64,000 bases of DNA from an uncultured Alphaproteobacteria bacterium (GCA_963703855.1 CAVPFW010000023.1:42961-106960), one strand, 5' to 3'. Shown: positions 7,646 to 61,099, counted from the stretch's first letter. Made by a program: numbers and translations. The notes: generated by a model not told the origin, from the letters alone.

Positions 7646-7654
7646 CGTCGGCAC

Positions 7655-12202: not shown

Positions 12203-12204
12203 CG

Positions 12205-12513: not shown

Positions 12514-12557
12514 GGCGCGCTGCCCCGCTCCAGATTGCGCGCGCCGCGAGTTCGTGG

Positions 12558-12580: not shown

Positions 12581-12596
12581 GACAGTTTGAGCGGAT

Positions 12597-12650
12597 CTTG
12601 CGTCTGAGTGAATTTGTGTCTGCGTGAATTCTGTGTCTGCGTCTGAGCAC
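12597..12650. repeat. Imperfect tandem repeat of about 16 nt, roughly 3 units
   Basis: The units are CTTGCGTCTGAGTGAATT / TGTGTCTGCGTGAATT / CTGTGTCTGCGTCTGAGCAC. The repeat lies immediately downstream of the hydrolase stop and upstream of the small ORF. Confidence 0.5.
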
Positions 12651-13537: not shown

Positions 13538-13559
13538 CCCCTTCCTGAATGCGGCGATC

Positions 13560-14351
13560 TCACCATTTGTTGCGCAATTCGCGCAGCTTCAGGAACACGG
13601 TGCGCGGGTCGGGATTGTCGGGCAGGTCGGGGAAGGCTTCGCGCAGGCGGCGGATCACCGACGGGCTGGTCAGCCGGAAAAAGGTGTTGATCTCGCGCTC
13701 CTGCGCCAAGGTGGTGACGAGCGGCCGGTTCGTGTCCTGGTTCTCGACCCGCGGCAGCACCTCCTTGGCGCGCGCGTTGTCCGGCTCGCGGTCGAGGGTA
13801 AAGGCGAGGTTGCGCGCGATGTAGTCGTGCCCCGGATAGATCAGGGTCTCCTCCGGCAATTTGGCGAGCTGGCCGACAAAGCTGTTGTAGAGCTCGTTCG
13901 GGTGGCCGCCATTGTGGCAATTGCCGGCGCCGGCGTTGAACAGGGTATCGCCGCAGAACAATCCCGGCGCGTCGCCATGCGCCAGGATGCAGATGTGCGA
14001 CATCGTGTGGCCCGGGGTGTCGAGGCATTCGAGCTCGACCGTCTTGCCGACCCGGATCACGTCGCCGGCGCGCAGGCCCTGGTCCATCTCCGCGATCTTG
14101 TCCCTGGCGTTGGCATGGGCCAGCACCTTGGCCCCGGTCGCCGCCACCATCTGCGGGTTGCCGCCGGTATGGTCGCGATGCTCGTGGGTGTTCAGGATCT
14201 GGGTGATGGTCCAGCCCCGCGCCTTGGCGGCAGCGAGGCACTTTTCGTGGTCGAGCGGGTCGACCGCCAGCGCCTCTCCGGTCTCTCCGCAGGCGATCAG
14301 ATAATTGAAGTTGCGCCCGGCATTCGCGGTCCAGATCTGTTCGACGATCAT
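13560..14351 (-). CDS. gloB: Hydroxyacylglutathione hydrolase (glyoxalase II, MBL fold)
   Basis: Internal ATG at 14351. MIVEQIWTANAGRNFNYLIACGETGEALAVDP..., metal motif THEHRDHTGGN, TPGHTMSHI, and the C-terminal NTFFRL...FLKLRELRNKW typical of GloB. Confidence 0.85.
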   Translation of the reverse strand: MIVEQIWTANAGRNFNYLIACGETGEALAVDPLDHEKCLAAAKARGWTITQILNTHEHRDHTGGNPQMVAATGAKVLAHANARDKIAEMDQGLRAGDVIRVGKTVELECLDTPGHTMSHICILAHGDAPGLFCGDTLFNAGAGNCHNGGHPNELYNSFVGQLAKLPEETLIYPGHDYIARNLAFTLDREPDNARAKEVLPRVENQDTNRPLVTTLAQEREINTFFRLTSPSVIRRLREAFPDLPDNPDPRTVFLKLRELRNKW

Positions 14352-14653
14352 TGCTCGCCCCTTCGATGTTGAGCCGATCATAATGAGGACCGGTGCACGC
14401 ACCCGCCTCGGTCCGCTTCTATTGCGCGGGGCCGGGCTTGTCCATCGCCGCGCGCCGATACTCGGCCGGCGTCGGCCGGACGGGCGAGCCGGCGCCGGTC
14501 CGCGCGGGTGGTGCAAGGCTCCGCAGCCTGTGACAATTTCGCGGCTCGGGCTGTTTCATTTGCGGGGATGCGCGCCGCCGGCCATGCCGTAATCGATCTG
14601 GGCACCAGTCGGGCGCTGACGACTTTCGGACGCGGGGGTTTTAGTCTGCGGGG

Positions 14654-15445
14654 ATGCGCCAAACTTTTCGCGCCGTAATCATCACCGGGGCTTCGAGCGG
14701 GCTCGGCGCCGCCCTGGCCGAGGCTTATGCCGGGCCGGGGACGATGCTGGGCCTGCTCGGGCGCGACCGGCAGCGGCTGGGGGCGTCCGCCGATGCCTGC
14801 GAGGCGAAGGGGGCGATGGTGCGGGTGGGGGCGATCGACGTAGCCGACGCGCCGGCGATGGCCGCGTGGCTCACCCAATTCGATCGCGACCATCCGGTCG
14901 ACCTGGTGGTCGCCAATGCCGGCACCTCGGCCGGGCCGGCCCCCGACAGCCCGTCCGAGGGTATCGAGACCGCCGCACGGCAGGTTCGGGTGAACCTGCT
15001 CGGTGCGATCAACACGGTCGAGCCGCTGCTGCCGGCGATGTGCGCGCGACGCCGCGGGACCATCGCCATGGTGGCCTCGATCGCGGCCTATCGCGGGCTC
15101 CCCTACAGCCCCGGCTACTGCGCCAGCAAAGCCGGGCTGCGCGCCTATGCCGAGGCGCTGCGGCCGCGCCTCGCGCCGCGCGGCGTCGAGGTCACGATCG
15201 TGTGCCCCGGCTTTTTCGATTCGCCGATGACCGACCGGTTCGACGGGCCGACCCCGTTTCTGCGCCAGGGCGGCGATGCAGCGCGGATCGTTAAGCGCGG
15301 CATCGATCGCGGCCGGCGCCGGGTCGCCTTTCCGTGGCCGCTCGTGCTCGGCCTGCAATTCTGCGACATCGCGCCGGCCCTGATCGGCGACGCGATCCTG
15401 CGGCGCTTTCGCTTTCATATCCGGCCCGATCCCGGCGCTGGATGA
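14654..15445 (+). CDS. Short-chain dehydrogenase/reductase (SDR)
   Basis: The cofactor motif is ITGASSGLGAALA. The catalytic motif is YCASKAGLRAY. The stop overlaps the next start (ATGA). Confidence 0.8.
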   Translation: MRQTFRAVIITGASSGLGAALAEAYAGPGTMLGLLGRDRQRLGASADACEAKGAMVRVGAIDVADAPAMAAWLTQFDRDHPVDLVVANAGTSAGPAPDSPSEGIETAARQVRVNLLGAINTVEPLLPAMCARRRGTIAMVASIAAYRGLPYSPGYCASKAGLRAYAEALRPRLAPRGVEVTIVCPGFFDSPMTDRFDGPTPFLRQGGDAARIVKRGIDRGRRRVAFPWPLVLGLQFCDIAPALIGDAILRRFRFHIRPDPGAG

Positions 15446-17002
15446 GCGGGCTGCTCCAGCTTGCGCTCGGCGCGCTGCTGGCGCTGGCGGCTTGGCTGAT
15501 CCCGCGCCATGTCGCCAAGGCGCGGATGGTTGGGGTGCCGGCGGTTCTGCTCGACCTCTTCCCGGTGCCGCTGGCAGGTGGTCTGCTGCTGATTGCAACC
15601 GGGCGGCCGATATTTGCCGGGCTCGTGCTGCTGTCGCTTGGCGCCGGGTTCGCGCTCGCCGACCGCACCAAGCGCGAGGTGCTGCGCGAGCCGGTGGTCT
15701 TTTCCGAGATGTCCGAATTGCCGCATGTCTTCACCCACCCGCAGCTCTATCTGCCGTTCGCCGGACCGGGTCTCGTGATCGGCGGGGCATTCGCGGCGAT
15801 TGCTCTCGGGCTGGCTCTGCTGCTGCTCGAACCGCCGTTGTGGCGGCCGGATGCGGCGGCGATCGCGGCCGCGATCGCAACCGTGGCAGGGGCCGGGTGG
15901 GCGATGTCGCGCGAACCGGGGCTCGGCGCCGCGGCGGCGCTGTTGCGGCGTCTCGGTCCCACCGGCGAGCCGTTTGAAGACGCGGCGACGCTGGGCCCGT
16001 TTGCGATCCTCCTCGTTTACGGCATCATCGCCCGCGCCGAGCGCGCCCAGCGTCGCGCCCGTCACCCGCCGTTGTCGGCGCCGGCGTTGGTGCGCACCGC
16101 GGCCGCGGTGCCGGTCGTCCTGGTGCAGTGCGAGTTGTTCTTCGACGCGCGGCGGGTGTCGCCGATGGTGCCGCGCGATCTGCTGCCCGGCGTTGACGCC
16201 TGCCTCGCAGAGGGGGCGACGTTCGGCCGGCTCGAGGTTGCGGGCTGGGGCGCCAACACGATGCGGGCCGAGTTCGCGGTGCTGACCGGCATCCCCGAGA
16301 GCGATCTCGGCTACGACCGGTTCAACCCCTATCACGCGTTTGCGCGCGCGCCGGTCGCCTCGCTGGTCTGGCGCTTGCGCGGCGAAGGCTACCGCACCTT
16401 GTGCCTGCACCCGTTCGACCGCGGCTTTTTCCGCCGCGATCTGACCCTGCCCAAGCTCGGCTTCGAGACCTTTCTCGGCCGCGAAACCCTAGGCGGGTCG
16501 CGCCGGCCGCCCTATCGCTCCGACCCCGATCTTGCCGCTCAGGTGCTGAGCGCCCTTGAGGAGGCGGGGCCGCGCACCTTCATCTTCGTGATCACGATGG
16601 GCAATCACGGACCCTGGCTCGAGTTCGGGACCGCCGATCGACCCCGGGCTGCGCCGGCGCTTCGACCCGGCCGGCATACCGCAGGGCGGCCAATTGCTGC
16701 GCTATCTCGACGGGTTGGCGCGGTCGGACGAGATGCTCCGGATATTAACGCAAGCCCTGGGGCCGCGCGGTCATGACGGCGTGCTCGGCTTTTACGGCGA
16801 CCACCTGCCGAGCCTGCCGCACGCGTTCGCCCATTTCGGCTTTGACGAGTGGGCGAGCGACTACGTGCTGCTCGACGGCGCCGCTCCGCGCGTGCAACGG
16901 CGCGACTTGGCGGCCGATTTGCTGCCCTGGATGATCCTCGACCGGCTGCGTCGCAGAGGTGCTGTCGAAGCACGCCGGGCGGCGGTGGTCGGCGCGGCTT
17001 GA
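15442..17002 (+). pseudogene. Membrane-anchored LTA-synthase / sulfatase-like (alkaline-phosphatase superfamily) protein; frame broken by 1 extra nt at the GGG run 16627-16629
   Basis: Frame 1 reads MSGLLQLALGALLALAAWLI... (several TM segments) ...VLVQCELFFDARR...ANTMRAEFAVLTGIPES...FIFVITMGNHGPWLEF. The sequence then continues sensibly only in frame 2: GPPIDPGLRRRFDPAGIPQGGQLLRYLDGLARSDEMLRILTQALGPRGHDGVLGFYGDHLPSLPHAF..., stop at 17002. The 1561-nt length is not a multiple of 3. This could be a sequencing error rather than true decay. Confidence 0.6.
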
Positions 17003-38041: not shown

Positions 38042-40450
38042 ATGATACGCTGCGTTATCGTGTTCAGCATGCTTGCGACACTGCTTTGGGGCGCCCCGCC
38101 ATTCGCTCTATTCCCAAAGGCCCAGGCCAGTGTCGACCCAACCCTCCACGGGCATCCGCCGCCCCCTCCTCCTACCGGTTCCCCGGTCGATACGATCACA
38201 ATCTCCAACCAGAGCGGCCTCGCCATCAGCAACTACCCGCTGCAGTTCGGCCGACCGTTCGTCGACGGCGCGATCGCCGACCAGCCGCAGGTGCTGATAT
38301 CGGGGAGCCCGGTCACGACCCAGGCCGATGTCAAGAACCGTTACCCGGACGGCTCGGTCGAATTCGCCGTCGTCGCAATCGTGATCCCGACCCTGCCGGC
38401 CAGCGGATACTTGACCCTGACCTTTCGCGACCAGGCCTCCGGCAACAACACCCCGCTGACCCAGGCGCAGATGCTGGACCCAGCCTACAATTTCGACGCG
38501 GCGATCACCTTTACCCCAAAATTGGGCATACCCCTGACCGTCAGCGCCCGCACCATGCTGCAGAACGGCGATTACAAGCTGTGGACCTCGGGCCCGGTGG
38601 CGCAGACCGTCATCCTCGGCGACGACACGGCAGCGCGCCGCTACGACATCGGGTTTGGCGGCGGGTTCCACCCGCTGCGCGCGCGCTTCTATGCGACTTT
38701 CTGGCCGGCGACGCACCAGGTCGCGGTGCGGGCCGTGGCCGAAAGCGGACTGACCACTGAATATGAGGACGCTGCCTACAAGGTGACGATCACCGCCGGA
38801 CGGGCGGCGCCGGCGACGGTGTATTCGGCCGACCTCTCCGGGACCCAGACGACGGACCCGAAGCTCCACTGGGCCGGAAGCGCATGGACGCAGCGCTTTT
38901 GGCTGCCCAATGGCGGGACGCCGTCGGCGCAGGTCGACATCGACAACAACCTCGCCTACCTGGCCTCGACCCGGTTTGTGCCGCATTACGACACCTCGGT
39001 TGCGATCACGCCGAGTGCGGTGGCGGCCGAATACGCGCTATGGACCGGCAAGCCGCACGACCTTTATGACGGGGTGTGGGACGGCGGGCTGTGGACCAAC
39101 TACATGGGCACGCCCGGCGCGCGGCAGGACATCAGCCCCTATCCGACCTGGACCGCGCTGTGGCTCTACACCGGCGACTGGCGGATGCGGCAGATGGCGC
39201 TGGGGATGGCCGATTTGGCCGCGGCGTGGCCCTATCATGCCCGCGAGACCGACCCGATCCGGAACCTGCTGCGCACCGACGCTCCCGGCGCCGGAACCGG
39301 TCTGGGCCTCCCGTTCTCGATCGTCGGCCGGCCGGGGATCGATACCTGGAACAGCAACGGCACGATCAGCGACGCTTTCACCGTTGTCGGGCCGGTCGCG
39401 ACCTCGAACCCTTGGGCCTATGAAGCTTCACACGAGCCGGCGCCGTTCTATCCGCAATATCTGCTGAGCGGCGATCCGTGGTATCTCGGCGAGATGGAGT
39501 TCCTGGCCAATTGGGACGCGGGCCGCTACCCGCCGGGCAACTGCAGCTATTGCCAGCGCGGTCCGGACGGCACCTATGGCGGGATCGGCGACGAACTGCG
39601 CGGCGCCGGCTGGGTGATCCGCAGCCGCGCCGAGGCGGCCTTTGCCGCGCCCGACCGCGACCCGGAGAAGACCTATCTCCAAAGCTTGGTCGACGATGCG
39701 CTGGCGCGCTGGGAAGGTGGCTTCGGCATCGCCGGGACCATCTATGACGGCACGGTGATGAAGAATTGGGGGGCGGGCCTCGGCGACTATTATACCCTCA
39801 ACAGCGGGCCGGACTCCACCAAGGTCCCGACCCTGCATTATTGGGAGAGCAACGGCAACCCCACCAACGACAATTCGCTGGTCGACAGCGACACGGCGGC
39901 CGGGTGGTTCCGGCCCGGAGCGGTCGGCTCGGTCACCGACCCGTGGATGCAGTGGTATACCCAGTACTGCCTCGGGCGCGCCGCCGAACTGGGGTTCGCC
40001 GCAGCACCGCTGGCGCAATGGTCCGGGCAATGGCTGACCGGCCTGATCAACAGCTCCGGCTTGCCGATCGGCATCACCTTTTACGAGGTTCCGGCCGAGG
40101 CCAAGGGCGGCGGCTTCCCGGCGACCTATGCAGCGTGGCTCGCCCTGTTCAACCCGGCCTACCTGACCGGCGCCGGGTGGAACCCGTCGCTCGGGGTCGA
40201 CCTGCCGCAATACTTTGCGAACAACCTCTATGCGCAGGGCCGCCCGGCCTACGCGATGGCGGCGCTCGCCCTGCTGGTCGACCAGGGCGCCGCGGGCGCG
40301 GCCCAGGCGTGGATGTGGATGGACGCCAACGTGCGCCGGCCGATCGCCGCGGCGACCGCGGGGGCACCGTTCTCGCAGGACCCGTCCTGGGCGATCGTGC
40401 CGCGCACCGATACGAACGCGTTGCCGCCGCAGCCGACCGCGCCGCAATAG
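38042..40450 (+). CDS. Large secreted protein (802 aa), unknown function
   Basis: The signal peptide is MIRCVIVFSMLATLLWGAPPFALFPKAQA, followed by a polyproline linker HGHPPPPPPTG. The N-terminal third looks beta-rich. The C-terminal two-thirds are Trp/Tyr-rich and probably helical (WPYHARE, GDPWYLGEMEFLANWD, WMQWYTQYCLGRAAELGF). I recognise no family. Confidence 0.75.
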   Translation: MIRCVIVFSMLATLLWGAPPFALFPKAQASVDPTLHGHPPPPPPTGSPVDTITISNQSGLAISNYPLQFGRPFVDGAIADQPQVLISGSPVTTQADVKNRYPDGSVEFAVVAIVIPTLPASGYLTLTFRDQASGNNTPLTQAQMLDPAYNFDAAITFTPKLGIPLTVSARTMLQNGDYKLWTSGPVAQTVILGDDTAARRYDIGFGGGFHPLRARFYATFWPATHQVAVRAVAESGLTTEYEDAAYKVTITAGRAAPATVYSADLSGTQTTDPKLHWAGSAWTQRFWLPNGGTPSAQVDIDNNLAYLASTRFVPHYDTSVAITPSAVAAEYALWTGKPHDLYDGVWDGGLWTNYMGTPGARQDISPYPTWTALWLYTGDWRMRQMALGMADLAAAWPYHARETDPIRNLLRTDAPGAGTGLGLPFSIVGRPGIDTWNSNGTISDAFTVVGPVATSNPWAYEASHEPAPFYPQYLLSGDPWYLGEMEFLANWDAGRYPPGNCSYCQRGPDGTYGGIGDELRGAGWVIRSRAEAAFAAPDRDPEKTYLQSLVDDALARWEGGFGIAGTIYDGTVMKNWGAGLGDYYTLNSGPDSTKVPTLHYWESNGNPTNDNSLVDSDTAAGWFRPGAVGSVTDPWMQWYTQYCLGRAAELGFAAAPLAQWSGQWLTGLINSSGLPIGITFYEVPAEAKGGGFPATYAAWLALFNPAYLTGAGWNPSLGVDLPQYFANNLYAQGRPAYAMAALALLVDQGAAGAAQAWMWMDANVRRPIAAATAGAPFSQDPSWAIVPRTDTNALPPQPTAPQ

Positions 40451-40459
40451 GTCCACCCG

Positions 40460-42241
40460 GTGCCGCTGCAGCTCCTCAGCCGCCTGAGAACGACGCGAAG
40501 TCTCGCCCGGGATTTCCGCGAAGCGCTGTCGCTGCAGCAAAAGGGCCACCTGCCGGAAGCGGCGAGGCTTTATCGAGACGTGCTGCAGCGCGACCCTGGC
40601 CACGTACAGGCGCTGTTCAATCTCGGGCTCGTTCGGGTCCGCCAGGGCGGGCTCGACGACGCCATCGGCCTGCTCGGCGAGGCGCTCCGCCGGCAGCCCG
40701 ACTTTGCCGAGGCGCACAACGCCCTCGCCATCGCGCTGCGCTTGTCGGGCCATCACGAGGAGGCGCTGGCGCACTACGCGCAGGCCCTCGCCATCAAGCC
40801 CGACTATGCCGAAGTCGAGAACAATATCGGAATAGCGCTGCAGGGGCGGGGGCGTTCGCCGGAGGCGATCGCGCATTTCGAGAGGGCGGTTTCCCTCAAA
40901 CCCGATTACGCCGAGGCGGAGAACAACCTGGGCGCCGCATTGCGGGCGGTCCACCGCTACGAGGAGGCGGCTGCGCATTACCGCAGAGCTCTGGCGGCCA
41001 ACCCCGGTTCGGCCGCGGCGCACAGCAATCTCGGCTCGGCGCTTCAGCTCCTCGTCCGCCATGACCAGGCTCTGGCGCAGTTCGACCGGGCATTGGCGCT
41101 GAAGCCCGATCTGGCCGAGGCACATCACGGCCGCGGCACCGTGCTGCGCACCCTGGGCCGGCTCGACATGGCGCAGCAGGCGCTGGAACGGGCGATCGCA
41201 CTGGCGCCGCGCAAGGCCGAGTTCTACCGCTCCTTGGCCGAAAGCAAGCGCTTTGCCGAGAACGACCCGCACCGCACCATGATCGAGGCGCTGGCGCGCG
41301 ACATGGCGGCGCTGTCGGAGGAGGAGCAGGTGCACCTCCATTTCGCGCTGGGCAAGGTCTATGGCGATGTCGGTGAGGATCAGCGCGCGTTCGACCATCT
41401 TCTGCAAGGCAACGCGCTGAAGCGCCGGCGGATCGTCTATGACGAGGCCGCCGCACTGGCGCGGCTCGACCGCACCCGGGCCTTGTTCAGCGCCGAATTC
41501 ATGCGCGAGCGGGCAGGACAGGGCGACCCGTCGCCGGTGCCGGTGTTCATCATCGGCATGCCGCGCTCGGGCACGACCTTGGTCGAGCAGATGCTGGCGA
41601 GCCACCCGCAGGTTCATGGCGCCGGCGAGCTCAGCGATTTCGCGGCCGCGGTGGCGGCGCTCGACGGCCCCGACGGTGTTCCGCCCGACATCGGCGGCGA
41701 GGAGCTGCGCCGCATCGGGGCGGATTACCTGGCGCGGGTCACGCCGGCGGCGCCGATGGCCCGGCATATCACCGACAAGATGCCGGCGAATTTCCGCTTT
41801 GCCGGGCTGATCCATCTGGCCTTGCCCAACGCGCGCATCATCCATATCAGCCGCGACCCGGTCGACACCTGCCTGTCGTGCTTTTCGATCCTGTTCGGCG
41901 GCGACCAGCCCTTTACCTACGAGCTGGGCGAGCTCGGGCGCTATTACCGCGGCTATGCGGCGCTGATGGCGCACTGGCGCCGGGTGCTGCCGCCGGGGGT
42001 CATGCTCGAAGTCCGGTACGAGGCGCTGGTCGGCGATTTCGAGCCGCAGGCGCGCCGTATCCTCGCCCATTGCGGTCTCGCCTGGGACGATGCCTGCCTC
42101 GATTTCCACAACACCGAGCGGCCGGTCCACACCGCGAGCGCGGCCCAGGTGCGCCGGCCGGTCTACCAAACCTCGGTCGGCCGCTGGCGCCCGCCGGGAG
42201 ATGTGCTGCGCCCCTTGCTCGACGCGCTCGACCGGGATTAG
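40460..42241 (+). CDS. TPR-repeat sulfotransferase, paralogue 1 (593 aa)
   Basis: GTG start 9 nt after the preceding stop. About 7 TPR units are present (AEAHNALAIALRLSGHHEEALAHYAQALAIKPDYAE...). The C-terminal sulfotransferase domain carries a 5'-PSB loop FIIGMPRSGTTLVEQML and a 3'-PB-like segment IIHISRDPVDTCLSCF. Confidence 0.8.
   Translation: MPLQLLSRLRTTRSLARDFREALSLQQKGHLPEAARLYRDVLQRDPGHVQALFNLGLVRVRQGGLDDAIGLLGEALRRQPDFAEAHNALAIALRLSGHHEEALAHYAQALAIKPDYAEVENNIGIALQGRGRSPEAIAHFERAVSLKPDYAEAENNLGAALRAVHRYEEAAAHYRRALAANPGSAAAHSNLGSALQLLVRHDQALAQFDRALALKPDLAEAHHGRGTVLRTLGRLDMAQQALERAIALAPRKAEFYRSLAESKRFAENDPHRTMIEALARDMAALSEEEQVHLHFALGKVYGDVGEDQRAFDHLLQGNALKRRRIVYDEAAALARLDRTRALFSAEFMRERAGQGDPSPVPVFIIGMPRSGTTLVEQMLASHPQVHGAGELSDFAAAVAALDGPDGVPPDIGGEELRRIGADYLARVTPAAPMARHITDKMPANFRFAGLIHLALPNARIIHISRDPVDTCLSCFSILFGGDQPFTYELGELGRYYRGYAALMAHWRRVLPPGVMLEVRYEALVGDFEPQARRILAHCGLAWDDACLDFHNTERPVHTASAAQVRRPVYQTSVGRWRPPGDVLRPLLDALDRD
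41060..42241 (+). repeat. Tandem duplication, copy A (3' 1.18 kb of sulfotransferase paralogue 1)
   Basis: It aligns without gaps to 42679-43860 at a constant offset of 1619 nt. By eye there are only a few mismatches in the last ~700 nt (for example CAGGTTCATGGC vs CAGGTCCACGGC). The first ~400 nt are clearly more divergent. Confidence 0.85.
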
Positions 42242-48422: not shown

Positions 48423-48697
48423 CCCGATAGCCGCGGCCCTGAGCCGGGATGGACCGCGGCGGCGAGATCAAACTTGGCGGGACATCGCCAGCATGCCCGC
48501 TCAAGCCTTGGCGCGGCGATGCCGTTCGGGGGCCATCCACCCCGTCAAGTTCGGCCGCGGGGAACCTCGATTTGTGCCCAGCCCCCTGCCGAGAACCGCT
48601 TTCCCTTATCGGACGGCCATCGGTCGAGCCCCGCCACGGGGGTAAGCGTCCGGCTCGAAATGAATGCCATCAGATCAGTAGCTTCCCCGTCGTCATC

Positions 48698-48755
48698 GTC
48701 GTTCCCGCGAAAGCGGGAATCCAGGGCGGCAAGGGCCGGAGCGCTCGACCCCTGT
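48698..48755. repeat. REP family 2 unit
   Basis: GTCGTTCCCGCGAAAGCGGGAATCCAGGGC is a hairpin TTCCCGC-GAAA-GCGGGAA. It is the same unit as at 55412-55441. This is the widespread alphaproteobacterial repeat that translates as IPAKAGI / FPRKRES. Confidence 0.7.
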
Positions 48756-48776
48756 TTGGTCAGGCTCTAACAGGAA

Positions 48777-51542
48777 CTATTCCGCTGCCGCCCTGGCTTC
48801 GACCGGCTCGACCTTGGCGGCGCAGAATTTGTATTCGGGGATCTTGCCGAAGGGGTCGAGCTGCGGGTTGGTCAAGACGTTCGCGGCGGCTTCGGCGTAG
48901 CAGAACGGGATGAACACCATGCCTAGCGCCACCGCGCTGTCGGCGCGCGCCTTCAATTCGATCGTGCCGCGCCTCGTGGTAACCCGGATCGGCTCCCCGG
49001 CGGCGACGCCGAGGCGGCGCAATTCGGCCGGCGCCAAGCTGGCCACGGCCTCGGGCTCGAGCTCGTCGAGCACATTCGCCCGCCGGGTCATGGCACCCGT
49101 GTGCCAGTGTTCGAGCTGGCGGCCGGTGGTCAGCACCATCGGGTATTCGAGGTCGGGCTCCTCGGCCGGCGGGATGATCGCCGCCGGCACCAGCCGGCCG
49201 CGCCCCGAAGCCGTCGGAAAGCCGTCGCCGAAAACTATGTCGTGGCCGGGCTGGTCCTCGGAATCGCACGGGTAGGTCACCGAGCCTTCGCGCTCCAGGC
49301 GCTCCCAGGTGATGCCGTTCAACGACGGCATCGCCAATTTCATCTCGGCGAACACGTCGCGCGGGTGCGGGTAGGACCAATCGAGCCCGATGCGCCGGGC
49401 GATCTCTTGGATGATCCACAGATCCTCGCGCGCGTTACCCGGCATCGGCAACGCCCGGCGGCCGAGCTGAACCTGACGGTTGGTGTTGGAGACGGTGCCG
49501 TCCTTCTCCGGCCAGGCCGAGGCCGGCAACACGACATCGGCATATTTCGCGGTTTCGGTCAGGAACAGGTCCTGGACGACCAGATGCTCGAGCTTGGCCA
49601 ACGCCTCGCGCGCGTGCTGGACATCGGGGTCCGACATCGCCGGATTCTCGCCCATGATGTACATGCCCCGGATCTCGTCGCGATGGACCGCGTCCATGAT
49701 CTCGACCACGGTCAGCCCGGCCTTGTCGTCGAGAGGGGTGTGCCACAAGGCCTCGAATTTCTCGCGGACCGCTGGGTCCACGACCGACTGGTAGTCGGGA
49801 TAGACCATCGGAATGAGCCCGGCGTCGGACGCGCCCTGCACGTTGTTCTGGCCGCGCAGCGGGTGGAGGCCGGTCCCTGGCCGGCCGATCTGCCCGGTGA
49901 CCAGCGCCAATGCGATCAGGCAGCGCGCATTGTCGGTGCCGTGGACATGCTGCGAGATGCCCATGCCCCAAAAGATGATCGCCGCCTCGGCGCGGGCATA
50001 GGTGCGCGCGATGTGGCGCAGGGTCGCCGCGTCGACGCCGCAGATCTCGGCCATCCTTTCCGGCGGGTAGGCGCGGACATGCTCGCGCAATTGCTCGAAA
50101 TCGTCGGTATGGGCCTGGACGTATTGCCTGTCGTAGAGATCCTCCTCGATGATCGTGTGCAGCAACGCGTTCAGCATCGCCACGTCGCGCGCCGGCTTGA
50201 AGCGCAGCATGTGGGTCGCATAGCGCGCCATGACCTGGCCGCGCGGGTCCATCACGATCAGCTTGGCGCCGCGCTTGGCCGCCTGCTTGAAAAACGTTGC
50301 CGCCACCGGATGGTTTTCGGTCGGGCGCGCACCGATGATGATGATGACGTCGGAATCCGCCGCCGCGGTGAATGGTGCCGTGACCGCGCCCGAGCCGATC
50401 CCCTCCATCAATGCCGCGACCGACGAGGCGTGGCACAGCCGGGTGCAATGGTCGACATTGTTGCTGCCGAACCCGGTGCGCACGAGCTTCTGAAAGAGAT
50501 AGGCCTCCTCGTTCGAGCCCTTGGCCGAGCCGAAGCCGGCGAGCGCGCGCTTTCCATCCCGGTCGCGGATATGCTTCAGCCTGGCGGCGGCGAGGTCGAG
50601 CGCTTCCTCCCAGCTCGCCTTGCGGAAATGGCTGTAGGGGTTGGCCGGGTCGATGTCGACATCGTGCTTCGACACCCCTTCCCTGCGGATCAGAGGCTCG
50701 GTCAGCCGGTCGGAGTGATGGACATAATCGAAGCCGAACCGGCCCTTGACGCAAAGCCGGTTGTGGTTGGCCGGGCCGTCCTTGCCCTCGACCGCGACGA
50801 TATGGTCGTCCTTGATCTTGTAGGTCAGCTGGCAGCCGACGCCGCAATAAGGGCACACGCTGTCGACCTCGCGGTCGGGCATGTTGGCATAGACCCCGTT
50901 CGCATCGACCATGGTCGCCGGCATCAGCGCGCCGGTCGGGCAGGCCTGCACGCACTCGCCGCAGGCGACGCAGGTGCTGGCCCCCATCGGATCGTCGAAA
51001 TCGAACACGATCTTTTCGCGGTAGCCGCGCGCCGCCATGCCGATCACGTCGTTGACCTGGACCTCGCGGCACGCGCGCACGCAAAGATTGCACTGGATGC
51101 AGGCGTCGAGCTGCACCGCCATCGCCGGATGGCTGCGGTCGGGCGCCGGCGCCGCATGCATCGCAAACCGGCTCGCGCTGACGCCGACCGTATCGGCCCA
51201 TTGCCAGAACCGCGATTGCGGATCATGCGCGGCGGCGCGGTCAGGCTGGTCGCCGACCAAGAGCTCGAACACCATCCTGCGCGAGAACCGGGCGCGCTCG
51301 CTCGCGGTCTGCACCTTCATGCCCGGGGTCGGCTGGCGCACGCAGGAGGCGGCGAGCACCCGCTCGCCCTCGATCTCGACCATGCAGGCGCGGCAATTGC
51401 CGTCGGCGCGATAGCCCGGCTTCGGCAGCCAGCACAAATGCGGGATCTCGATGCCCTGGCCGTTGGCCACTTGCCAGATCGTCTCGCCAGGTGCGGCCTC
51501 GACCTCGGCGCCGTCGAGAAAAAAGCGGATCGGTTCGGTCAT
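48777..51542 (-). CDS. fdsA: NAD-linked formate dehydrogenase, alpha (catalytic, molybdo/tungstopterin + Fe-S) subunit
   Basis: The 921-aa ORF is uninterrupted. It starts with a NuoG-like N-terminus MTEPIRFFLDGAEVEAAPGETIWQVANGQGIEIPHLCW...GNCRACMVEIEG and ferredoxin-like CxxCxxC motifs. The MopB domain has the active-site context VDHCTRLCHASSV (Cys, not Sec). Confidence 0.9.
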   Translation of the reverse strand: MTEPIRFFLDGAEVEAAPGETIWQVANGQGIEIPHLCWLPKPGYRADGNCRACMVEIEGERVLAASCVRQPTPGMKVQTASERARFSRRMVFELLVGDQPDRAAAHDPQSRFWQWADTVGVSASRFAMHAAPAPDRSHPAMAVQLDACIQCNLCVRACREVQVNDVIGMAARGYREKIVFDFDDPMGASTCVACGECVQACPTGALMPATMVDANGVYANMPDREVDSVCPYCGVGCQLTYKIKDDHIVAVEGKDGPANHNRLCVKGRFGFDYVHHSDRLTEPLIRREGVSKHDVDIDPANPYSHFRKASWEEALDLAAARLKHIRDRDGKRALAGFGSAKGSNEEAYLFQKLVRTGFGSNNVDHCTRLCHASSVAALMEGIGSGAVTAPFTAAADSDVIIIIGARPTENHPVAATFFKQAAKRGAKLIVMDPRGQVMARYATHMLRFKPARDVAMLNALLHTIIEEDLYDRQYVQAHTDDFEQLREHVRAYPPERMAEICGVDAATLRHIARTYARAEAAIIFWGMGISQHVHGTDNARCLIALALVTGQIGRPGTGLHPLRGQNNVQGASDAGLIPMVYPDYQSVVDPAVREKFEALWHTPLDDKAGLTVVEIMDAVHRDEIRGMYIMGENPAMSDPDVQHAREALAKLEHLVVQDLFLTETAKYADVVLPASAWPEKDGTVSNTNRQVQLGRRALPMPGNAREDLWIIQEIARRIGLDWSYPHPRDVFAEMKLAMPSLNGITWERLEREGSVTYPCDSEDQPGHDIVFGDGFPTASGRGRLVPAAIIPPAEEPDLEYPMVLTTGRQLEHWHTGAMTRRANVLDELEPEAVASLAPAELRRLGVAAGEPIRVTTRRGTIELKARADSAVALGMVFIPFCYAEAAANVLTNPQLDPFGKIPEYKFCAAKVEPVEARAAAE

Positions 51543-51997
51543 CGTCGACTCTCCCAGCGGTAGCGGACGTCGGGCGTCCGCTCCTCGTTATCTGCGCCCT
51601 CGGTGATGCGGATGACGCGGAAACCACGCGCCTCGTAGAAGCGGCGCGCGCGGGTATTGGCCTGAAAACACCACAGTTCGAGCGCCGCGACGTCGTTTGC
51701 CTTCGCCGCTTCGATAAGCTGCGTTCCCGCGCCCTGGCCGATGCGATCAGGCCGTGTGTAAAGCTGCCTCACTTCCTCACCCTGACGGGCGAGGAACGCG
51801 ACGATGCCGGTGTCGTCCTCGGCGATCGTGACCGCGCATTCCTTCAGCATCCGCTCGGCAGCGTACCAACGATAGCTCTTAAGATCGTGGAGCATCGGCA
51901 GAAAGGTCAGCAGGCGGAACGACGCGTAATAGACATCGGCGATCAATTCCGCATCGTCTTGCGTGGCGAGACGCAACTTGAATCGAGCAGCGATCAT
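51539..51997 (-). CDS. GNAT family N-acetyltransferase (152 aa)
   Basis: MIAARFKLRLATQDDAELIADVY..., an acetyl-CoA site-like RQLYTRPDRIGQGAGTQLIEAA, and ANTRARRFYEARGF. Its TGA overlaps the fdsA ATG (ATGA at 51539-51542). Confidence 0.8.
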   Translation of the reverse strand: MIAARFKLRLATQDDAELIADVYYASFRLLTFLPMLHDLKSYRWYAAERMLKECAVTIAEDDTGIVAFLARQGEEVRQLYTRPDRIGQGAGTQLIEAAKANDVAALELWCFQANTRARRFYEARGFRVIRITEGADNEERTPDVRYRWESRR

Positions 51998-52000
51998 CAC

Positions 52001-52315
52001 TCATATCCGCTGCAGCTTTTGGATGAAGTCGTTGACCTCGGGCTGGGTCCAGGTGTCGCCGTGGTGCCAGAAATCCAGCAGAGGATCCATGTTGCGCGAT
52101 ACCCATTTGATCACTTGCGGCGACATCTGGCGTACGACCCGCGGGGGCAGGCGGCTAGCGACAACGCTCGGCATGTCGGCAATTGAAACGGAGAAACTGG
52201 GCTGTGATCTCCCCGGCTGAAGAAAGTATTTGACCTGCGGACCGTGCGCACCCATCGCCGTCGAGATGAAGATCGTGCCGGTTATGCCGGTCTGGGCGGT
52301 GGTCAGATTGGCCAT
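52001..52315 (-). CDS. Small conserved hypothetical protein (104 aa)
   Basis: MANLTTAQTGITGTIFISTAMGAHGPQVKYFLQPGRSQPSFSVSIADMPSVVASRLPPRVVRQMSPQVIKWVSRNMDPLLDFWHHGDTWTQPEVNDFIQKLQRI. It resembles a small-protein family I recall from alphaproteobacteria (ANLxxxxTG..FIS..G.HG..VK...WV..N...L..W.G). An alternative GTG start at 52393 would overlap the fdsB stop. Confidence 0.5.
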   Translation of the reverse strand: MANLTTAQTGITGTIFISTAMGAHGPQVKYFLQPGRSQPSFSVSIADMPSVVASRLPPRVVRQMSPQVIKWVSRNMDPLLDFWHHGDTWTQPEVNDFIQKLQRI

Positions 52316-52389
52316 TTCGACCAGCTCCTCGCGCGCCAGTTCTTCTGCCAGCGAGGGGTGAGCCGGAACCTGAATGACCCTTTCAATCG

Positions 52390-54099
52390 TCACGTCAGAT
52401 CCCCTCGGAAGTGCTTGAGCACCTGGGTGACCGGGTTCATCGCGGCCTGGCCGAGGCCGCAGATCGAGGCGTCGCTCATGACCCGGGTCAATTCCTGCAG
52501 CAGTGCTTCGTCCCAATGCGGCGCGGTCATCAGCTTGACCGCCTTTTCGGTGCCGGCGCGGCACGGCGTGCATTGGCCGCAGCTCTCATCCTCGAAAAAG
52601 CGCAACAAGTTCAGCGCCACCGCCTTCATGTCGTCCTGGTCGGAGAGCACGACAACCGCACCCGAGCCGGTAAAGCAGCCCCGTGCGGTTCGAGCGTGCC
52701 GAAATCGAGCGGGAGGTCAGCCATCGCCGCCGGCAAGATGCCGCCCGAGGCGCCGCCCGGCAGATAGCCCTTGAAGGCGTGACCCTCGGCCATGCCGCCG
52801 CAGAATTCGTCGATCAGCTGGCGCGCGGTGATCCCGGCCGGAGCGAGCTTGACCCCCGGATCGCGCACCCGCCCCGACACCGAGAAGGTGCGCAGCCCTT
52901 TGCGCCCGTTGCGGCCTTGGCCGGTGAACCAGTCGGCGCCCTTTTCGACGATGTCGCGCACCCAATAGAGGGTCTCGACATTGTTGCACAGGGTCGGCCG
53001 GCCAAAGAGCCCGACCTGCGCCGGAAACGGCGGCCGCTGGCGCGGCAGGCCGCGCTTGCCCTCGATGATTTCGAGCATCGCCGATTCCTCGCCGCAGATA
53101 TAGGCGCCGGCGCCGCGGCGCAGATGGATGTGCGCATGCGGCGCCAGCCCGGCGGCTTCGAGCGCCGCAATCTCGCTTTCGAGGATCGCCCGGCATTGCG
53201 GGTATTCGTCGCGCAGATAGATGTAGATGTCGGCGGCCTCGACGACCCAGGCGGCGATCAGCATGCCCTTCGAGAAAACGGTGCGGGTCGGTTTCGAGAA
53301 AATAGCGGTCCTTGAAGGTGCCGGGCTCGCCCTCGTCGCCGTTGACCGCCAGCAGCCGGGGCGCCGGCTCCTGGCGCACCAGCCGCCATTTGCGCCCGGT
53401 CGGAAACCCGGCGCCGCCGAGCCCGCGCAGACCCGGAATGTTCGAGCGCTTCGATCAACTCTGTCGCGGCCGTGCGCTCGCCCGCCAGGCAGGATTGCAG
53501 CAGGCGGTAGCCGCCCGCGGCGCGATAGGCGTCGAGGCCGACAAAGGCCGGGACCGGCGGGTGCGTCTCGCCGGCGGCGACCGCGGCGGCGACGATCGTC
53601 GAGGGTGGCGTGCTCGTGCAGCGCGTGGCCGATCGCCACGACCGGCGCGCTTGTCGCAGCCGCCCATGCACGGCGCGCGCACGACCCGCACCTCGTCGCC
53701 GAGCCGGCTCTGGAGATCGGCCAGCAGCGGCACCGCCCCGGCGAGCTCGCAGCTCAGGCTGTCGCAGACCCGCACGGTCAGCGCCGGCGGCGGCTTCTCG
53801 TCGTCCATGACGATGTCGAAATGGGCGTAGAACGAGGCGACCTCGTAGACCTCGACCAGCGCCAGCCGCATCTCGTCGGCGAGCGCGGCCAGATGGCGCG
53901 CGTGCAGGCAGCCGAAATGGTCCTGCAGCAGGTGCAGGTGCTCGATCAAGAGGTCGCGCCGCCGCTCGCGGTCGCCGAGCAATGCCTGGACCTCGTCCAA
54001 CGCCGCCGGGTCGACCTGCCGGCCCTTCGGGTGATCGAGCCCGCGCCGCCGCCCCGAGCCCGGATGGATGCGGCGATCGTGCCTTGCCTGCGTGTTCAA
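52390..54099 (-). pseudogene. fdsB: Fused NuoE-like/NuoF-like (gamma+beta) subunit of NAD-linked formate dehydrogenase, interrupted by five frameshifts
   Basis: Homologous sequence must be read in six segments:
- Start-coordinate mod 3 = 0: ...HPKGRQVDPAALDEVQALL...VASFYAHFDIV...VRVCDSLSCELAG...VRAPCMGGCDK
- mod 2: APVVAIGHALHEHAT
- mod 1: STIVAAAVAAGETHPPVPAFVGLDAYRAAGGYRLL...ELIEALEHS
- mod 0: [56 protein letters not shown]
- mod 2: [21 protein letters not shown]...[51 protein letters not shown]...[11 protein letters not shown]...PLDFGTLEPHG
- mod 0: CFTGSGAVVVLSDQDDMKAVALNLLRFFEDESCGQCTPCRAGT...ASICGLGQAA
The breaks lie at about 53649, 53603-05, 53432-34, 53266-68 and 52679-82. Confidence 0.7.
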
Positions 54100-54160
54100 T
54101 GGTTAAAGCCTTGGGAGCGCCGGCTTCCAGCCCGCAGCGGGCGGGACGCCCGCGCTCCCA

Positions 54161-55390
54161 CTACACCGCCCCTTCCTGGTGCATCGCCGCGATCTCGTCC
54201 CTGCCGTAGCCGAGCCACTCGAGGATCTCGTCGGTGTGCTCGCCCAAGAGCGGCGAGCGCTTCACCTCGACCGGCGAATCGGACAGGTTGATCGGCGAGC
54301 CGACCTGCACGTAGCGGCCGCGGGTCGGGTGATCGACCTCGACCAGATAGCCGCGCTCGTAGTGCGAGCGGTCCTCGTAGATGTCCTTCATCGACAGGAT
54401 CGGGCCGCACGGCACGTCGACCTCGTTCAACGCCGCCATGACCTCGAACTTGGTCTTGGTCATCGTCCATTTCTCGATGATCGTGAAGCATTCGGGGATC
54501 TTGGGCAAACGCGCCTGCGGCGTCGCGTATCCCGGATCGGCGATCAGCTCTTCACGGCCGGCGAGCTTCATCAGCGGCTCCCATGAGGGCGGCTGGATGA
54601 TCACATAAACCCAGTCGTTCTGGCCGCCTGGCGCGCAACGCAACGCCGCCCCGGGCTGGCCGCCGCCCGAGGCGTTGCCGGCGCGCGGCACGGCGTCGCC
54701 AAACTCCTTGTTCGGGTATTCGGGCAGCGGGCCCTTCATGATGCGCTGCTGGTCGCGCATCTTGACCCGGCAAAGGTTCAGGACCGCATCGGTCATTGCC
54801 ACCTCGACGCGCTGGCCCCGGCCGGTGCGCTCGCGCTGAAAGAGCGCGGCGAGGATGCCGGCGACGACGTGCACGCCGGTGCCGCTGTCGCCGATCTGGG
54901 CGCCGGTCACGGTCGGCGGGCCGTCCTCCCAGCCGGTCGTGCTGGCCGATCCGCCCATGCATTGGGCGACGTTCTCGTAGGCCTTGCACTCGGCATAGGG
55001 GCCGGGACCAAAGCCCTTGATCGAGGCGTAGATGATCCGCGGGTTCAATTCCTGGAAACGCTCCCAGGTGAAGCCCTGGCGGTCGAGCACCCCCGGCCCG
55101 AAATTTTCGAGGATCACGTCGCAGCGATGGACCAGCTCCTCGATGATCCTTCGGCCGCCGGGTGATTTGAGGTTGAGCGTGATGCTGCGCTTGTTCGAGT
55201 TCAGCATCGTGAAATAGAGGCTGTCGGCGCCCTTCACGTCCTGCAATTGACCGCGGGTGATGTCGCCGCGCCCGGGCATCTCGATCTTGATCACGTCGGC
55301 GCCCATCCACGCCAGCAGCTGGGTCGCGGTCGGCCCCGCCTGGACATGGCCGAAATCGAGGATGCGGACACCTTCAAGCGCTTTGCTCAT
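54161..55390 (-). CDS. frc: Formyl-CoA:oxalate CoA-transferase
   Basis: ATG at 55390. [37 protein letters not shown]...[23 protein letters not shown]...[15 protein letters not shown]...[13 protein letters not shown]...[18 protein letters not shown] matches Frc, the family III CoA-transferase of Oxalobacter/E. coli YfdW type. Confidence 0.9.
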
Positions 55391-55398
55391 CGCTCGCC

Positions 55399-56247
55399 TC
55401 ACCTGAAATTCGTCATTCCCGCGAAAGCGGGAACCCAGGGCCCGCCGCTCCGTCGCTCGGCCCTGGACCCCCGCTTTCGCGGGGGCGACGGTTTTTTGGG
55501 CCGGGCCGCCACTTCGTCGCGTGCCGTGTCGAGGAAATCGCCGTGCTGCTCGACATGGGCGGCGAGCCCCAAGGTGTGCTCGCGCGCCAGCCGCGCCGCC
55601 TCGTCGGGGTCGCGACGCTCCAGCGCCTCGATAATCGCCATGTGATCGACGATCGAGCGCGCCGCGCGATCGTCGTGGTGGATCGTCACCTTGCGGATCG
55701 CGCGCATATGGATGAACAGGTTCTCGGTCATCTCGGCGAGCAGCTTACACCCGCTCATCCGTATGATCGCTTGATGGAAGGCGATGTTGGCGTCGGAATA
55801 TTCCTCCAGCCGCTCGCCGCCATCTGTTTGTCCATCGGGGCCGTCGCGAAACGCATCCATCAGCCGGCGCAGCTCGGCGATGTCGTCGTCGGGCGCGTTG
55901 AGCGCAACGAGCCGCGCCGCCATGCTTTCGAGCGCGGCCATGACCGTGATCATCTCGACGATCTCGCGCTTCGTCTTGCGCACGACAAAGATGCCGCGGC
56001 GCGGCCGGGTCCGCACAAAGCCTTCCTGTTCGAGCAAGGTCATCGCCTCGCGGATCGGCGTGCGGCTGACCCCGAGCCCCTCCGACAGCCGCCGCTCGTC
56101 GAGCCGGATCTCTTGCGTGTGGTCGTAGATGTCCATCGCCGTGATCGCCCGCTTCAGCGCGGCATAGGCGAGGTCGCGGAAGCTGGTGCCGGTGTCCAGC
56201 CGCGGCACGTCGAGAGTGGGGCTGGGGCGCGGGCTGGCTTCAGGCAT
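55399..56247 (-). CDS. GntR family transcriptional regulator (FadR/FCD subfamily) with a REP-encoded C-terminal tail
   Basis: The wHTH is [52 protein letters not shown]. The FCD domain runs to ...[20 protein letters not shown]. The last ~33 codons ([35 protein letters not shown]) are read straight through the REP pair at 55412-55490. Confidence 0.8.
55412..55490. repeat. Inverted pair of REP family 2 units
   Basis: GTCATTCCCGCGAAAGCGGGAACCCAGGGC lies at 55412-55441. Its near reverse complement GCCCTGGACCCCCGCTTTCGCGGGGGCGAC lies at 55460-55489. Confidence 0.75.
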
Positions 56248-56435
56248 CCCCTATAATATATGGTATATCAGCAGATTCCGCAACGGTTTTTGCCGCCTTA
56301 GGCGATAGCATCCTGGTACCTCGCACCGTCGGTGATTGCCAGGGTTCTCGACACAGGCGTAATTACGCCTATTTCGGCGCATATACGCTCTTTGCCACGG
56401 CCGACTCCACGATGTTCTGATCAAGGAGAAAGCCC

Positions 56436-56816
56436 ATGCCCGGGACCAACAAAGACATCGCCGTCGCCTTCTACAAAATGGCCGTGTTCGAAGGCCGGAT
56501 CGAAGATGCCTTCCGGCTTTACGCGGGTACCCCCTATCGCCAGCACAATCCGCTGATCGAAGACGGCATGGAAGGCCTGAAGAAGTTCTTTGCCTGGATC
56601 TTGTCGAATCATCCGGACGCTCGCGGCGAGATCAAGCGTGTCTTTGCCGACGGCGACCACGTTATCCTTCACAGTCATTGGCACGGCCTGTCCGATAATC
56701 CCCGCGGAGAGGCGGTGGTGGACATCTTCCGCCTGGAAGGCGGCAAGGTCTTGGAGCACTGGGACGTGATCCAGCCGATCCCGGAGACCTCGGCTAACGC
56801 CAACACGATGTTCTAA
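56436..56816 (+). CDS. SnoaL-like / NTF2-fold protein (126 aa)
   Basis: AAGGAGAAAG RBS. MPGTNKDIAVAFYKMAVFEGRIEDAFRLYAGTPYRQHNPLIEDGMEGLKKFF...DHVILHSHW...VDIFRLEGGKVLEHWDVIQ. Confidence 0.75.
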   Translation: MPGTNKDIAVAFYKMAVFEGRIEDAFRLYAGTPYRQHNPLIEDGMEGLKKFFAWILSNHPDARGEIKRVFADGDHVILHSHWHGLSDNPRGEAVVDIFRLEGGKVLEHWDVIQPIPETSANANTMF

Positions 56817-56820
56817 GAGC

Positions 56821-56892
56821 GTAGTGCGGGTGTAACGCGCCGTGCTGGCCGCCGAACCGATGGCGGGTTGCGCTGCGCTCCACCCGCCCTAC
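56821..56892. repeat. REP family 3 unit, copy 1 (72 bp)
   Basis: GTAGTGCGGGTG...CCGATGGCGGGTTGCGCTGCGCTCCACCCGCCCTAC has terminal inverted arms GTAG(T/G)GCGGGTG / CACCCGCCCTAC. It is closely similar to 57519-57590, in the same orientation. Confidence 0.7.
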
Positions 56893-56915
56893 GGGTTTGC
56901 CGCAACGGCGCCCCG

Positions 56916-57374
56916 TCAAAGCGGGTTTGGGCCGACGACTTCCCAGCGATGCCGTTCGAAGAGTTTGGTGCGTTCGCCGTCGTCGCTCGGGCGGTGCTCC
57001 GCGAGCGCCTCGACGAGGCCGCCGGCGGCGGCCGGGGTGTAGAGAAACAAGACGCTGCCGGTTTCGCGGCCGGTGTTCTTCCAGGCATGCGGGACGTCGC
57101 GCGGGAAGAACGCGCAGGTGCCGGGCCCACCGACCGTGACCTCGTCGCCGATCTTGAAGGTGAACTCGCCGGCGAGCACCCAGGCGACCTCGTCGCTGTC
57201 GCGGTGCAGATGGAAGAGGCTCGTGGTGCCGGCCGGCAGGGTTTCCTCGAACAGCATGATGCTCTCATCGGTCTCGCGGCCGAGGAGCTTCAAGGCAAAG
57301 GAGCGGCCGGGCGTCGGCGAGTCGAAATGCTTCCCGCCGCCCGCGGGTACGACAAAGCCTTTTGTTGCGGTCAT
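56916..57374 (-). CDS. Cupin domain protein (152 aa)
   Basis: ATG at 57374 follows GGAAGGAG. ...MLFEETLPAGTTSLFHLHRDSDEVAWVLAGEFTFKIGDEVTVGGPGTCAFFPRDVPHAWKNTG is a cupin motif 1/2 arrangement. Confidence 0.75.
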   Translation of the reverse strand: MTATKGFVVPAGGGKHFDSPTPGRSFALKLLGRETDESIMLFEETLPAGTTSLFHLHRDSDEVAWVLAGEFTFKIGDEVTVGGPGTCAFFPRDVPHAWKNTGRETGSVLFLYTPAAAGGLVEALAEHRPSDDGERTKLFERHRWEVVGPNPL

Positions 57375-57518
57375 GTTGCTCTCCTTCCCTGCGGCGGAAT
57401 GAGGATAAGAATCGGCGGCTCGATCTACCCGCGCGTGGAACTCGGGCGCGCTCGTCCGCACCAGCGAACACTACTACAATCACGAGTCCGAGGTGGAGCG
57501 CTTGGTTCGGGCAGGAAC

Positions 57519-60030: not shown

Positions 60031-60750
60031 TCATTGGCGGCGATACGGGTAGCGCAGCCGGCAATAGCGTAGATTTGGCGGATGATCGCGATGGCGCCGC
60101 GGCCGGATCTGCAGGGAAAGCCCGTTCCACGCCGCGCAATTGTCGCGGCCGACCTCGCGGCTCTCCTGGACGCACAGGACGTCCTCGACGGGCCGGCCGG
60201 CATAGGCGATGAAGGCCGACCCCTCCGCGGCGGCCGGCACCGCGAAGCGGGCATTGTAGTCGGGCACGAACTGTTGCTTGAGGTAGCGGTTCGGCGGCCT
60301 CGAGCGCCGCGTGGCGATCGCGGCGAGCCGCAGAGAATTGGCCTCTGGGAACAGCCAGGACTCGGCCCTCTTCGGCCGAGGCCGGAGACGACATCAGCCG
60401 TCCTCGTGCCAGGAGGGCCGATTGTAATTGCGCCGCTGCTGCAGCTGCTCGTGAAAATGCTTCACCGTGAAGTCGCGGTAGCGCTCCTGATAGAGGATCT
60501 GCATGCGGGTCAGCTCCGCCACCGGCGCCCGCCGCGGCGAGACCGTGCCGAGCCGGCGATCGCGCAGCCCCGCAGCCCCGTCCTCCTCATAGCGCAGCAG
60601 CAGTCGGCGGAAATGCCGCCCCGACATGCCCAGCACCTCGCCCGCCTCCTCGGCCGTCAGCCGCCGCTTGCGATAACGTTCCAGCGCCTCTTCGAATCTC
60701 AGCACGAAGACCTCCCATAACGCGCTTGCCCGCCGCATCGCCTCCTCCAT
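60031..60750 (-). mobile_element. Remnants of an ISNCY-family transposase gene (N-terminal HTH part and C-terminal part; catalytic core missing, frames broken)
   Basis: The N-terminal piece (60394-60750) reads ...FEEALERYRKRRLTAEEAGEVLGMSGRHFRRLLLRYEEDGAAGLRDRRLGTVSPRRAPVAELTRMQILYQERYRDFTVKHFHEQL. The C-terminal piece (about 60031-60340, other frame) reads ...NRYLKQQFVPDYNARFAVPAAAEGSAFIAYAGRPVEDVLCVQESREVGRDNCAAWNGLSLQI. Only about 50 nt separate the two pieces, where about 200 codons of DDE core are expected. Confidence 0.55.
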
Positions 60751-60784
60751 GGGATGGCTCGCCGCGCAAAACAAATCGAGCTGA

Positions 60785-61099
60785 CCGGGAGAGCTTTCGC
60801 GCCGAAAGTGTACGTACAATGGCGTCGGTTGGCTGCCGAGAAGGGCCGACTCCTTCGCAAGAGAGATGGCGCGGTTCTATGGCATCGGCTCTCTCGACGT
60901 GGCGCGCGCCTACCTGGCCCACCCCCTGCTGGGACCACGGCCCAACCTCTGCACCAGGACGACACTCGACATCGAGGGCGCATCGCTCCATGCGATTTTA
61001 GGCTCGCCCGACGATATGAAGTTCTGGTCATGCGCGACGCTGTTCTCGCTCGCGTGCTGCGCGGCGATCAGGATGCGAGGCGCGCGTCGATCTGGGTGA
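60785..61099 (+). pseudogene. Degenerate DUF1810-family gene fragment
   Basis: ...LPRRADSFAREMARFYGIGSLDVARAYLAHPLLGPRPNLCTRTTLDIEGASLHAILGSPDDMKFWSCATLF matches the central blocks of DUF1810 (Y.I.SL.EA.AYL.HP.LG.RL...G.S...I.G.PD..K..SS.TLF). The N-terminus (including the HWMWF block) is missing or garbled. Confidence 0.4.

Follow-up and report, generated by a model that had tools for sequence, protein, structure and literature searches.

Frame breaks in the FDH1-type formate dehydrogenase beta subunit gene of a soil Stellaceae contig are most likely inserted bases of the assembled consensus

The gene for the beta subunit of an FDH1-type formate dehydrogenase, a fusion of NuoE-like and NuoF-like parts, lies at 52390..54099 on the minus strand of the window (the whole 64,000 nucleotide stretch of DNA analysed here, from an uncultured alphaproteobacterium), and as written it falls into six reading-frame segments. 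The five breaks between these segments are most probably spurious bases inserted into the assembled consensus and not mutations of the organism. The gene itself is probably intact and the finding an ordinary one, since the breaks are most likely errors of long-read metagenome assembly. A sequence-only reading of this DNA had offered local poor sequencing and genuine decay of the diaphorase module as two possible explanations; the former is favoured here, because the changes are insertions only, selective constraint on the gene is normal, the extra bases have no support in public reads, and the pattern is linked to a sequencing technology.

The frame breaks are really in the sequence, since translation, composition segmentation and alignment all recover the same five, and the earlier statement that the beta sequence can be followed only by switching frame five times is thus borne out. 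Three-frame translation of the minus strand from 54110 to 52380 follows the protein along the path f2 > f0 > f1 > f2 > f0 > f2, so that the first and last segments do share a frame as had been noted. Segmentation of the full window by a GC3 hidden Markov model, which uses composition only, puts the switches in this gene at 53643/4, 53595/6, 53450/1, 53280/1 and 52678/9, and DNA alignment to 25 intact Stellaceae relatives finds the same five breaks, each of them an insertion in the window. None of the five is common to any of the 25 aligned relatives. Four of the events are insertions of 1 nt and one is an insertion of 2 nt, for 6 nt in total.

On the minus strand (inserted bases in brackets), site 1 is a +1 event, AAG[C]GCGCCG, at 53647..53651 (about 53649), in a GC-dinucleotide context, and its extra base is absent in 25/25 relatives. 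Site 2, GACGAT[C]GTC, is placed at 53594..53598 by the alignment to the 25 relatives and is also +1; it is not a homopolymer, and its earlier assignment to a C-run at 53603-53605 was mistaken. Site 3 is TCC[G]GGT (+1, 53432..53436, about 53434), where relatives have TCC GGT or TCG GGT, and site 4 is GAAGG[G]CATG (+1, 53265..53268), where relatives have GGC ATG or GGG ATG. Site 5, CAC[GG]GGCTGC at 52679..52682, has GGGG in the window and GG in 25/25 relatives, and it is more parsimoniously read as +2 than as a 1-nt deficit, which makes all five events insertions; the four single-base surpluses counted previously stand, and the single-base deficit counted as the fifth is better replaced by this 2-nt insertion. 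One further difference, at 53462..53464, is a 3-nt, in-frame one that gives the window one codon more than all the relatives and causes no frameshift.

Programmed recoding at the five sites (ribosomal frameshifting or slippage in transcription) would suit a net shift of zero and the fact that three of the sites touch short G/C runs, but the shifts (+1, +1, +1, +1 and +2) have no slippery motif in common, the runs are just 2-4 nt long, a single frame encodes the protein in 25/25 relatives, and a stop codon interrupts the zero frame at 53455-53457. We therefore reject programmed frameshifting, which we take to be exceedingly improbable.

One uninterrupted ORF of about 566 codons is absent from the gene as written and is obtained only after six bases are removed; the result is a clean 567-codon ORF with a single stop codon at its end. 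Its read-through protein carries the Pfam domains 2Fe-2S_thioredx, Complex1_51K, SLBB and NADH_4Fe-4S in the expected order (PF01257, E 7e-21; PF01512, E 2e-43; PF10589, E 3e-22). All four cysteines of the N-terminal, thioredoxin-like 2Fe-2S domain are present (Cys112/117/144/148), the GLGGAGFP and GEPGT motifs are kept, and the NuoF-like FMN/NAD(H) domain shares the one polypeptide with a C-terminal 4Fe-4S motif, CxxCxxC...C (Cys507/510/513/547). This read-through is 88–92% identical to hundreds of unbroken 566-aa proteins found in metagenome-assembled genomes (MAGs) of soil Stellaceae.

The best PDB match of the read-through is 7e5z chain B, the beta subunit of the tungsten FDH1 of Methylobacterium extorquens AM1 (also 7vw6, 7xqw and 8j83), which it matches over its full length (residues 11-565 align to 12-560, E 1e-239), and the resemblance to that protein that had been proposed in the sequence-only reading is well founded. 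The AM1 subunit is likewise a single polypeptide of about 570 aa in which a NuoE-like 2Fe-2S domain is fused to a NuoF-like FMN/NAD and 4Fe-4S module, and it is likewise paired with one large alpha subunit gene, with no adjoining fdsD or fdhD. The two systems differ in that the window's beta gene is interrupted as written, that a 130-aa ORF (orf130) and a GNAT acetyltransferase gene lie between beta and alpha, and that the window operon is headed by a formyl-CoA transferase and a GntR regulator; the likeness is one of sequence and does not imply tungsten or molybdenum as the metal. The FdsABG(D) enzymes of Rhodobacter capsulatus and Cupriavidus necator (6tg9, 6tga and 6vw7) share the NuoF-like beta chemistry (matches over the NuoF part at E 1e-70 to 1e-80) and the NuoG-like/molybdopterin type of alpha subunit, but they have a separate NuoE-like gamma and NuoF-like beta followed by fdsC/fdsD, whereas in the window the two are fused and the accessory genes absent. 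In agreement with the earlier reading, no fdsD or fdhD gene was found in the window 3' of fdsA.

The catalytic alpha subunit gene, fdsA, is intact (48777..51542, minus strand, 921 aa) and lies 848 nt downstream of the beta gene; its product scores 751.7 bits against the NCBIfam equivalog TIGR01591, whose cut-off is 666. Directly upstream of the beta gene is an intact formyl-CoA transferase gene, frc (54161..55402, minus strand; TIGR03253, 633 bits vs a cut-off of 504), and next to it a gene for a GntR/FCD-family regulator, identified by a domain match (55399..56247, minus strand). Orf130 (52001..52393, minus strand) has a GTG start that overlaps the beta stop codon. It has no Pfam or NCBIfam family match even at E 10, and its GC3 is low, so that the composition model scores part of it as non-coding; at least 13 Stellaceae loci keep it at this place with 68–83% identity and others lack it, and it could be a so far uncharacterised accessory gene of the FDH1-type operon. 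The GNAT acetyltransferase gene between orf130 and fdsA (51539..52000, minus strand) was found in the window only: its end overlaps the fdsA start (ATGA), and no fetched relative carries a GNAT gene there. In the soil metagenome run X4 no contig of at least 99% identity crosses 51476-52009, the GNAT region, though its flanks are covered. Among Stellaceae relatives (loci L001-L082) the distance from fdsB to fdsA ranges between 0 and about 2.3 kb (2.3 kb in L006, 1.8 kb in L037 and 1.6 kb in L015), as though this spacer were an insertion hot spot for small genes.

A short palindromic repeat, TCGTCATTCCCGCGAAAGCGGGAAyCCAGGGC, flanks the frc-FDH block with copies at 48696-48727, 55406-55442 and 55459-55495, one of which overlaps the 3' end of the GntR gene. 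Its depth is very high in all soil runs (92-149). A contig of another soil run, X10, joins 48724 to 55413 at copies of the repeat, and this junction is most likely an effect of the repeat and not a deletion variant.

Selective constraint was assessed on the repaired beta gene, and there is no sign that it is relaxed. Of the 368 alignment columns with 97% conservation or more, 2 carry a change private to the repaired protein, which equals the median of intact homologues (range 0-9, n=120). Its dN/dS against relatives is 0.12-0.22, and values among intact relatives are 0.06-0.22 with a median of 0.134. The repaired frame contains no nonsense codons and no larger indels. These measurements bear on the possibility of a real and very recent pseudogene, in which five small insertions put an end to NAD-linked electron transfer and the alpha subunit is kept. 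The breaks are present in the sequence and concentrated in one gene between intact neighbours: of the six frameshift events in the window, five lie inside a 1-kb stretch, out of about 55 kb that is coding (simulated P ~5e-6), and five events in one gene against one in the other 62 kb form a gene-specific pattern, as loss of that gene would give. The gene has nonetheless no excess of change at conserved columns, a normal dN/dS, no nonsense codons and no larger indels, and the comparison with orthologous loci that had been proposed earlier found that 0/25 relatives share any of the breaks.

In bacterial mutation spectra there is roughly one indel for every ten substitutions, and deletions predominate among the indels. 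A real pseudogene with five indels should, by these spectra, bring tens of substitutions with it and not insertions alone. Pseudogenes that arise by frameshift under relaxed selection are likewise ORFs broken by small indels among intact neighbours, but genuine ones also gather substitutions, stops and deletions and usually recur in independent data, none of which was found for the window's beta gene. We consider a recent pseudogene unlikely on these grounds, to which the read and assembly comparisons below add.

The public reads examined were soil metagenome runs in the form of Logan contigs, and not the window's own source reads. Contigs of X4 and X10 are at least 99% identical to the window over most of 44-60 kb. 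The word share of the flank at 54100-57500 is 0.57 in X4 and 0.56 in X10, and 0.57 is also the best word share across four run searches; within the beta gene it falls to 0.16 and 0.14, respectively. This drop is much larger than the insertions explain, since five indel sites could cost only about 9% of words. The exact-match contigs of X4 end at 52409 and 53837, on either side of the insertion cluster, and its contigs within the gene are 93–97% identical to the window, vs at least 99% outside it. A run search limited to Nanopore libraries returned no run, and a query for proteins identical to the window's FdsA gave no match.

None of the inserted bases was found in any contig of X4, X10, X25 or X26. 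X10 has a contig over site 1 that is one base short at 53650. At site 2 an X4 contig reads ...GGCGGCGAC followed directly by ATCGTCGAG, the G at 53594 being absent, and in an X10 contig 53598 is missing; contigs across sites 1 and 2 (91% identical) and across site 2 (95% identical) are both without the extra base. At site 4 an 86-nt X10 contig (98.8% identical, depth 29) lacks one base at 53269, and at site 5 no contig in the four runs spans the sequence in the window's form. With 91–98.8% identity to the window, the contigs over sites 1, 2 and 4 may belong to another strain. In JGI metagenomes a pattern over site 4 that allowed either form matched a single contig, L083, which at about 76% identity is too distant to be informative. 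The failure to see the inserted bases in runs whose contigs match the flanks at 99% identity or better argues against a pseudogene, and it is suggestive and not proof, because the strain is at low depth and Logan contigs drop rare variants.

The same data raise the possibility that the stretch is chimeric or recombinant, its interior (about 52410-53836) coming from another haplotype, by natural recombination or by strain-switching of the assembler, and the frameshifts having arisen with it. Such an origin would account for the X4 and X10 word shares, about 0.57 for the flanking sequence and about 0.15 within the gene, and for the lower identity of the X4 contigs inside it. However, when 200-nt tiles were compared with all fetched loci, no single relative proved a markedly closer donor for the gene interior than for the flanks, in a gene this conserved the path of the rarer strain may have been lost from the Logan contigs, and a chimera by itself leaves the insertions unexplained. 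It also overlaps with the explanation preferred here, consensus error, of which strain-collapse by the assembler is one form. As a separate account we regard it as highly unlikely. The loss of exact words across the gene interior, together with a conserved protein, would be consistent with a mixed-strain consensus.

The association with sequencing technology came from 80 loci fetched with the beta read-through, 24 of them from Nanopore-only Microflora Danica (MFD) MAGs and 56 from other assemblies, mostly short-read. The MFD MAGs, made with mmlong2, are Nanopore-only Flye assemblies with one round of Medaka polishing (PMC12313526). Among these Stellaceae loci, fdsA or fdsB is frameshifted in 8/24 MFD loci vs 1/56 others (Fisher P 1.8e-4). 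The MFD loci with +1 frameshifts in either gene are L059, L001, L002, L009, L027, L028, L068 and L075, and the frameshift clusters of L014 and L002 are heuristic calls only. All 14 of the 14 alignable mid-gene fdsA events in MFD loci are +1 insertions, mainly outside homopolymers. In L059 the region 10100-15000 has at least 13 frameshifts, all within fdsB-orf130-fdsA, and the adjoining frc is intact. A composition scan gave about 0.8 frameshift candidates per 10 kb in MFD loci and about 0.03 in the others, with about 0.9 in the window. The residual indels of the Nanopore-only MFD MAGs (PMC12313526) are likewise single-base insertions that split conserved genes, often clustered in otherwise clean contigs; the window has a similar frameshift density, and its link to this class is by signature, as its own pipeline may differ. 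That an identical insertion-only signature occurs in different genes of different Nanopore-only genomes is a further argument against a pseudogene.

The inserted base is in most cases the alternative allele of a neighbouring polymorphic column, usually a wobble position (4/5 events in the window and 10/14 MFD events). The null expectation for random or slippage insertions is 0.25-0.35, giving a combined P of ~3e-4, and for the window alone P is 0.054, which is marginal. Such matches would be consistent with a consensus of mixed strains that writes a SNP as two bases.

A sixth frameshift (16620..16626, plus strand), a +1 event with three adjacent substitutions, is supported by segmentation, contig and Pfam evidence and lies in a gene for a sulfatase-like membrane protein (about 15442-17002). 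The GC3 segmentation flags 16637, and the translation shifts by +1 there (GNHGPWLEFG to ...YGDHLPSL); when the frames are joined the Pfam Sulfatase match grows from profile positions 46-180 to 46-252. A short-read contig of X10 (3,208 nt, 98% identical, depth 25) lacks one base at 16624 and is in a single frame throughout. Since this +1 is missing from the in-frame X10 contig, at least one insertion-type error lies outside the beta gene. The earlier statement that other long genes have no breaks holds for fdsA, gltB and the other genes that were named, and fails for this sulfatase-like gene near 16624. Candidate junctions at 8171, 5358, 18141 and elsewhere were rejected as frameshifts because they are ordinary gene boundaries, and ORFs that follow one another in a single frame at 27-30 kb, 38-42 kb and 9.7-12.2 kb are distinct genes whose domains are complete, not pieces of broken ones.

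Several other features of the window were noted in passing. An arsenic resistance cluster at 5932-9261 (plus strand) includes an ArsR-type regulator and a glyoxalase-family protein, both recognised by family matches, and ORFs of 289, 173 and 428 aa, and from their translations the 173-aa ORF looks like a low-molecular-weight arsenate reductase and the 428-aa ORF like an Acr3-type efflux pump. An 802-aa ORF at 38042-40447 (plus strand) has coding-like composition and no Pfam domain, and it is followed in the same frame by a TPR and sulfotransferase protein at 40451-42238. At 60031-60876 (minus strand) two same-frame ORFs are split by a stop codon, and the upstream one has HTH_23/HTH_29 domains. 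These domains are typical of IS630-family transposases, and the region is probably a degraded insertion sequence.

Taken together, the disruptions in the beta gene are indels of 1-2 nt only, their removal restores a conserved ORF, a similar error lies at 16624, and frameshifts of this sort track the sequencing technology; relaxed constraint was not found, nor were the disruptions in relatives or in the independent data, where the strain is at low depth. The suggestion that the diaphorase module is genuinely decaying thus finds no backing in constraint, in relatives, in the read sets that hold the flanks or in the Nanopore-only signature. If the insertions were nevertheless real, a soil Stellaceae population would have very recently knocked out its FDH1 diaphorase subunit by several independent insertions and kept alpha, with NAD-coupled formate oxidation lost or its electron-transfer partner changed, and an unusual insertion-biased mutation process would have been at work; we judge this quite unlikely.

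Consensus error, the reading that we prefer, may have come about as follows. The window behaves like a long-read soil metagenome contig of a Stellaceae bacterium, probably of Nanopore type to judge by its error signature. Over about 1.4 kb in the beta gene the consensus would have been drawn from a mixed or thinly supported read pile-up, the likely cause being that reads of co-occurring related strains were collapsed onto one stretch, and the polisher may then have added bases beside wobble positions that differ between the strains. The main value of the finding is as a warning for the annotation of long-read MAGs: in Nanopore-only MAGs of this family +1 clusters repeatedly strike the FDH operon beside polymorphic wobble positions, so that read-level checks are needed wherever genes are called or pseudogenes counted in such assemblies.

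The organism's real gene would be an intact FDH1-type beta gene of 566/567 codons with 2Fe-2S, FMN/NAD and 4Fe-4S sites, whose product would work with the intact alpha subunit, both encoded in a frc-fdh1B-orf130-(GNAT)-fdh1A operon predicted to oxidise formate that is probably derived from oxalate. Accepted as they stand, the breaks would give rise to the false claim that NAD-linked formate oxidation has been lost or that the formate dehydrogenase has been rewired; read as consensus errors, they leave the frc-FDH1 (oxalate/formate) pathway intact in metabolic reconstructions.
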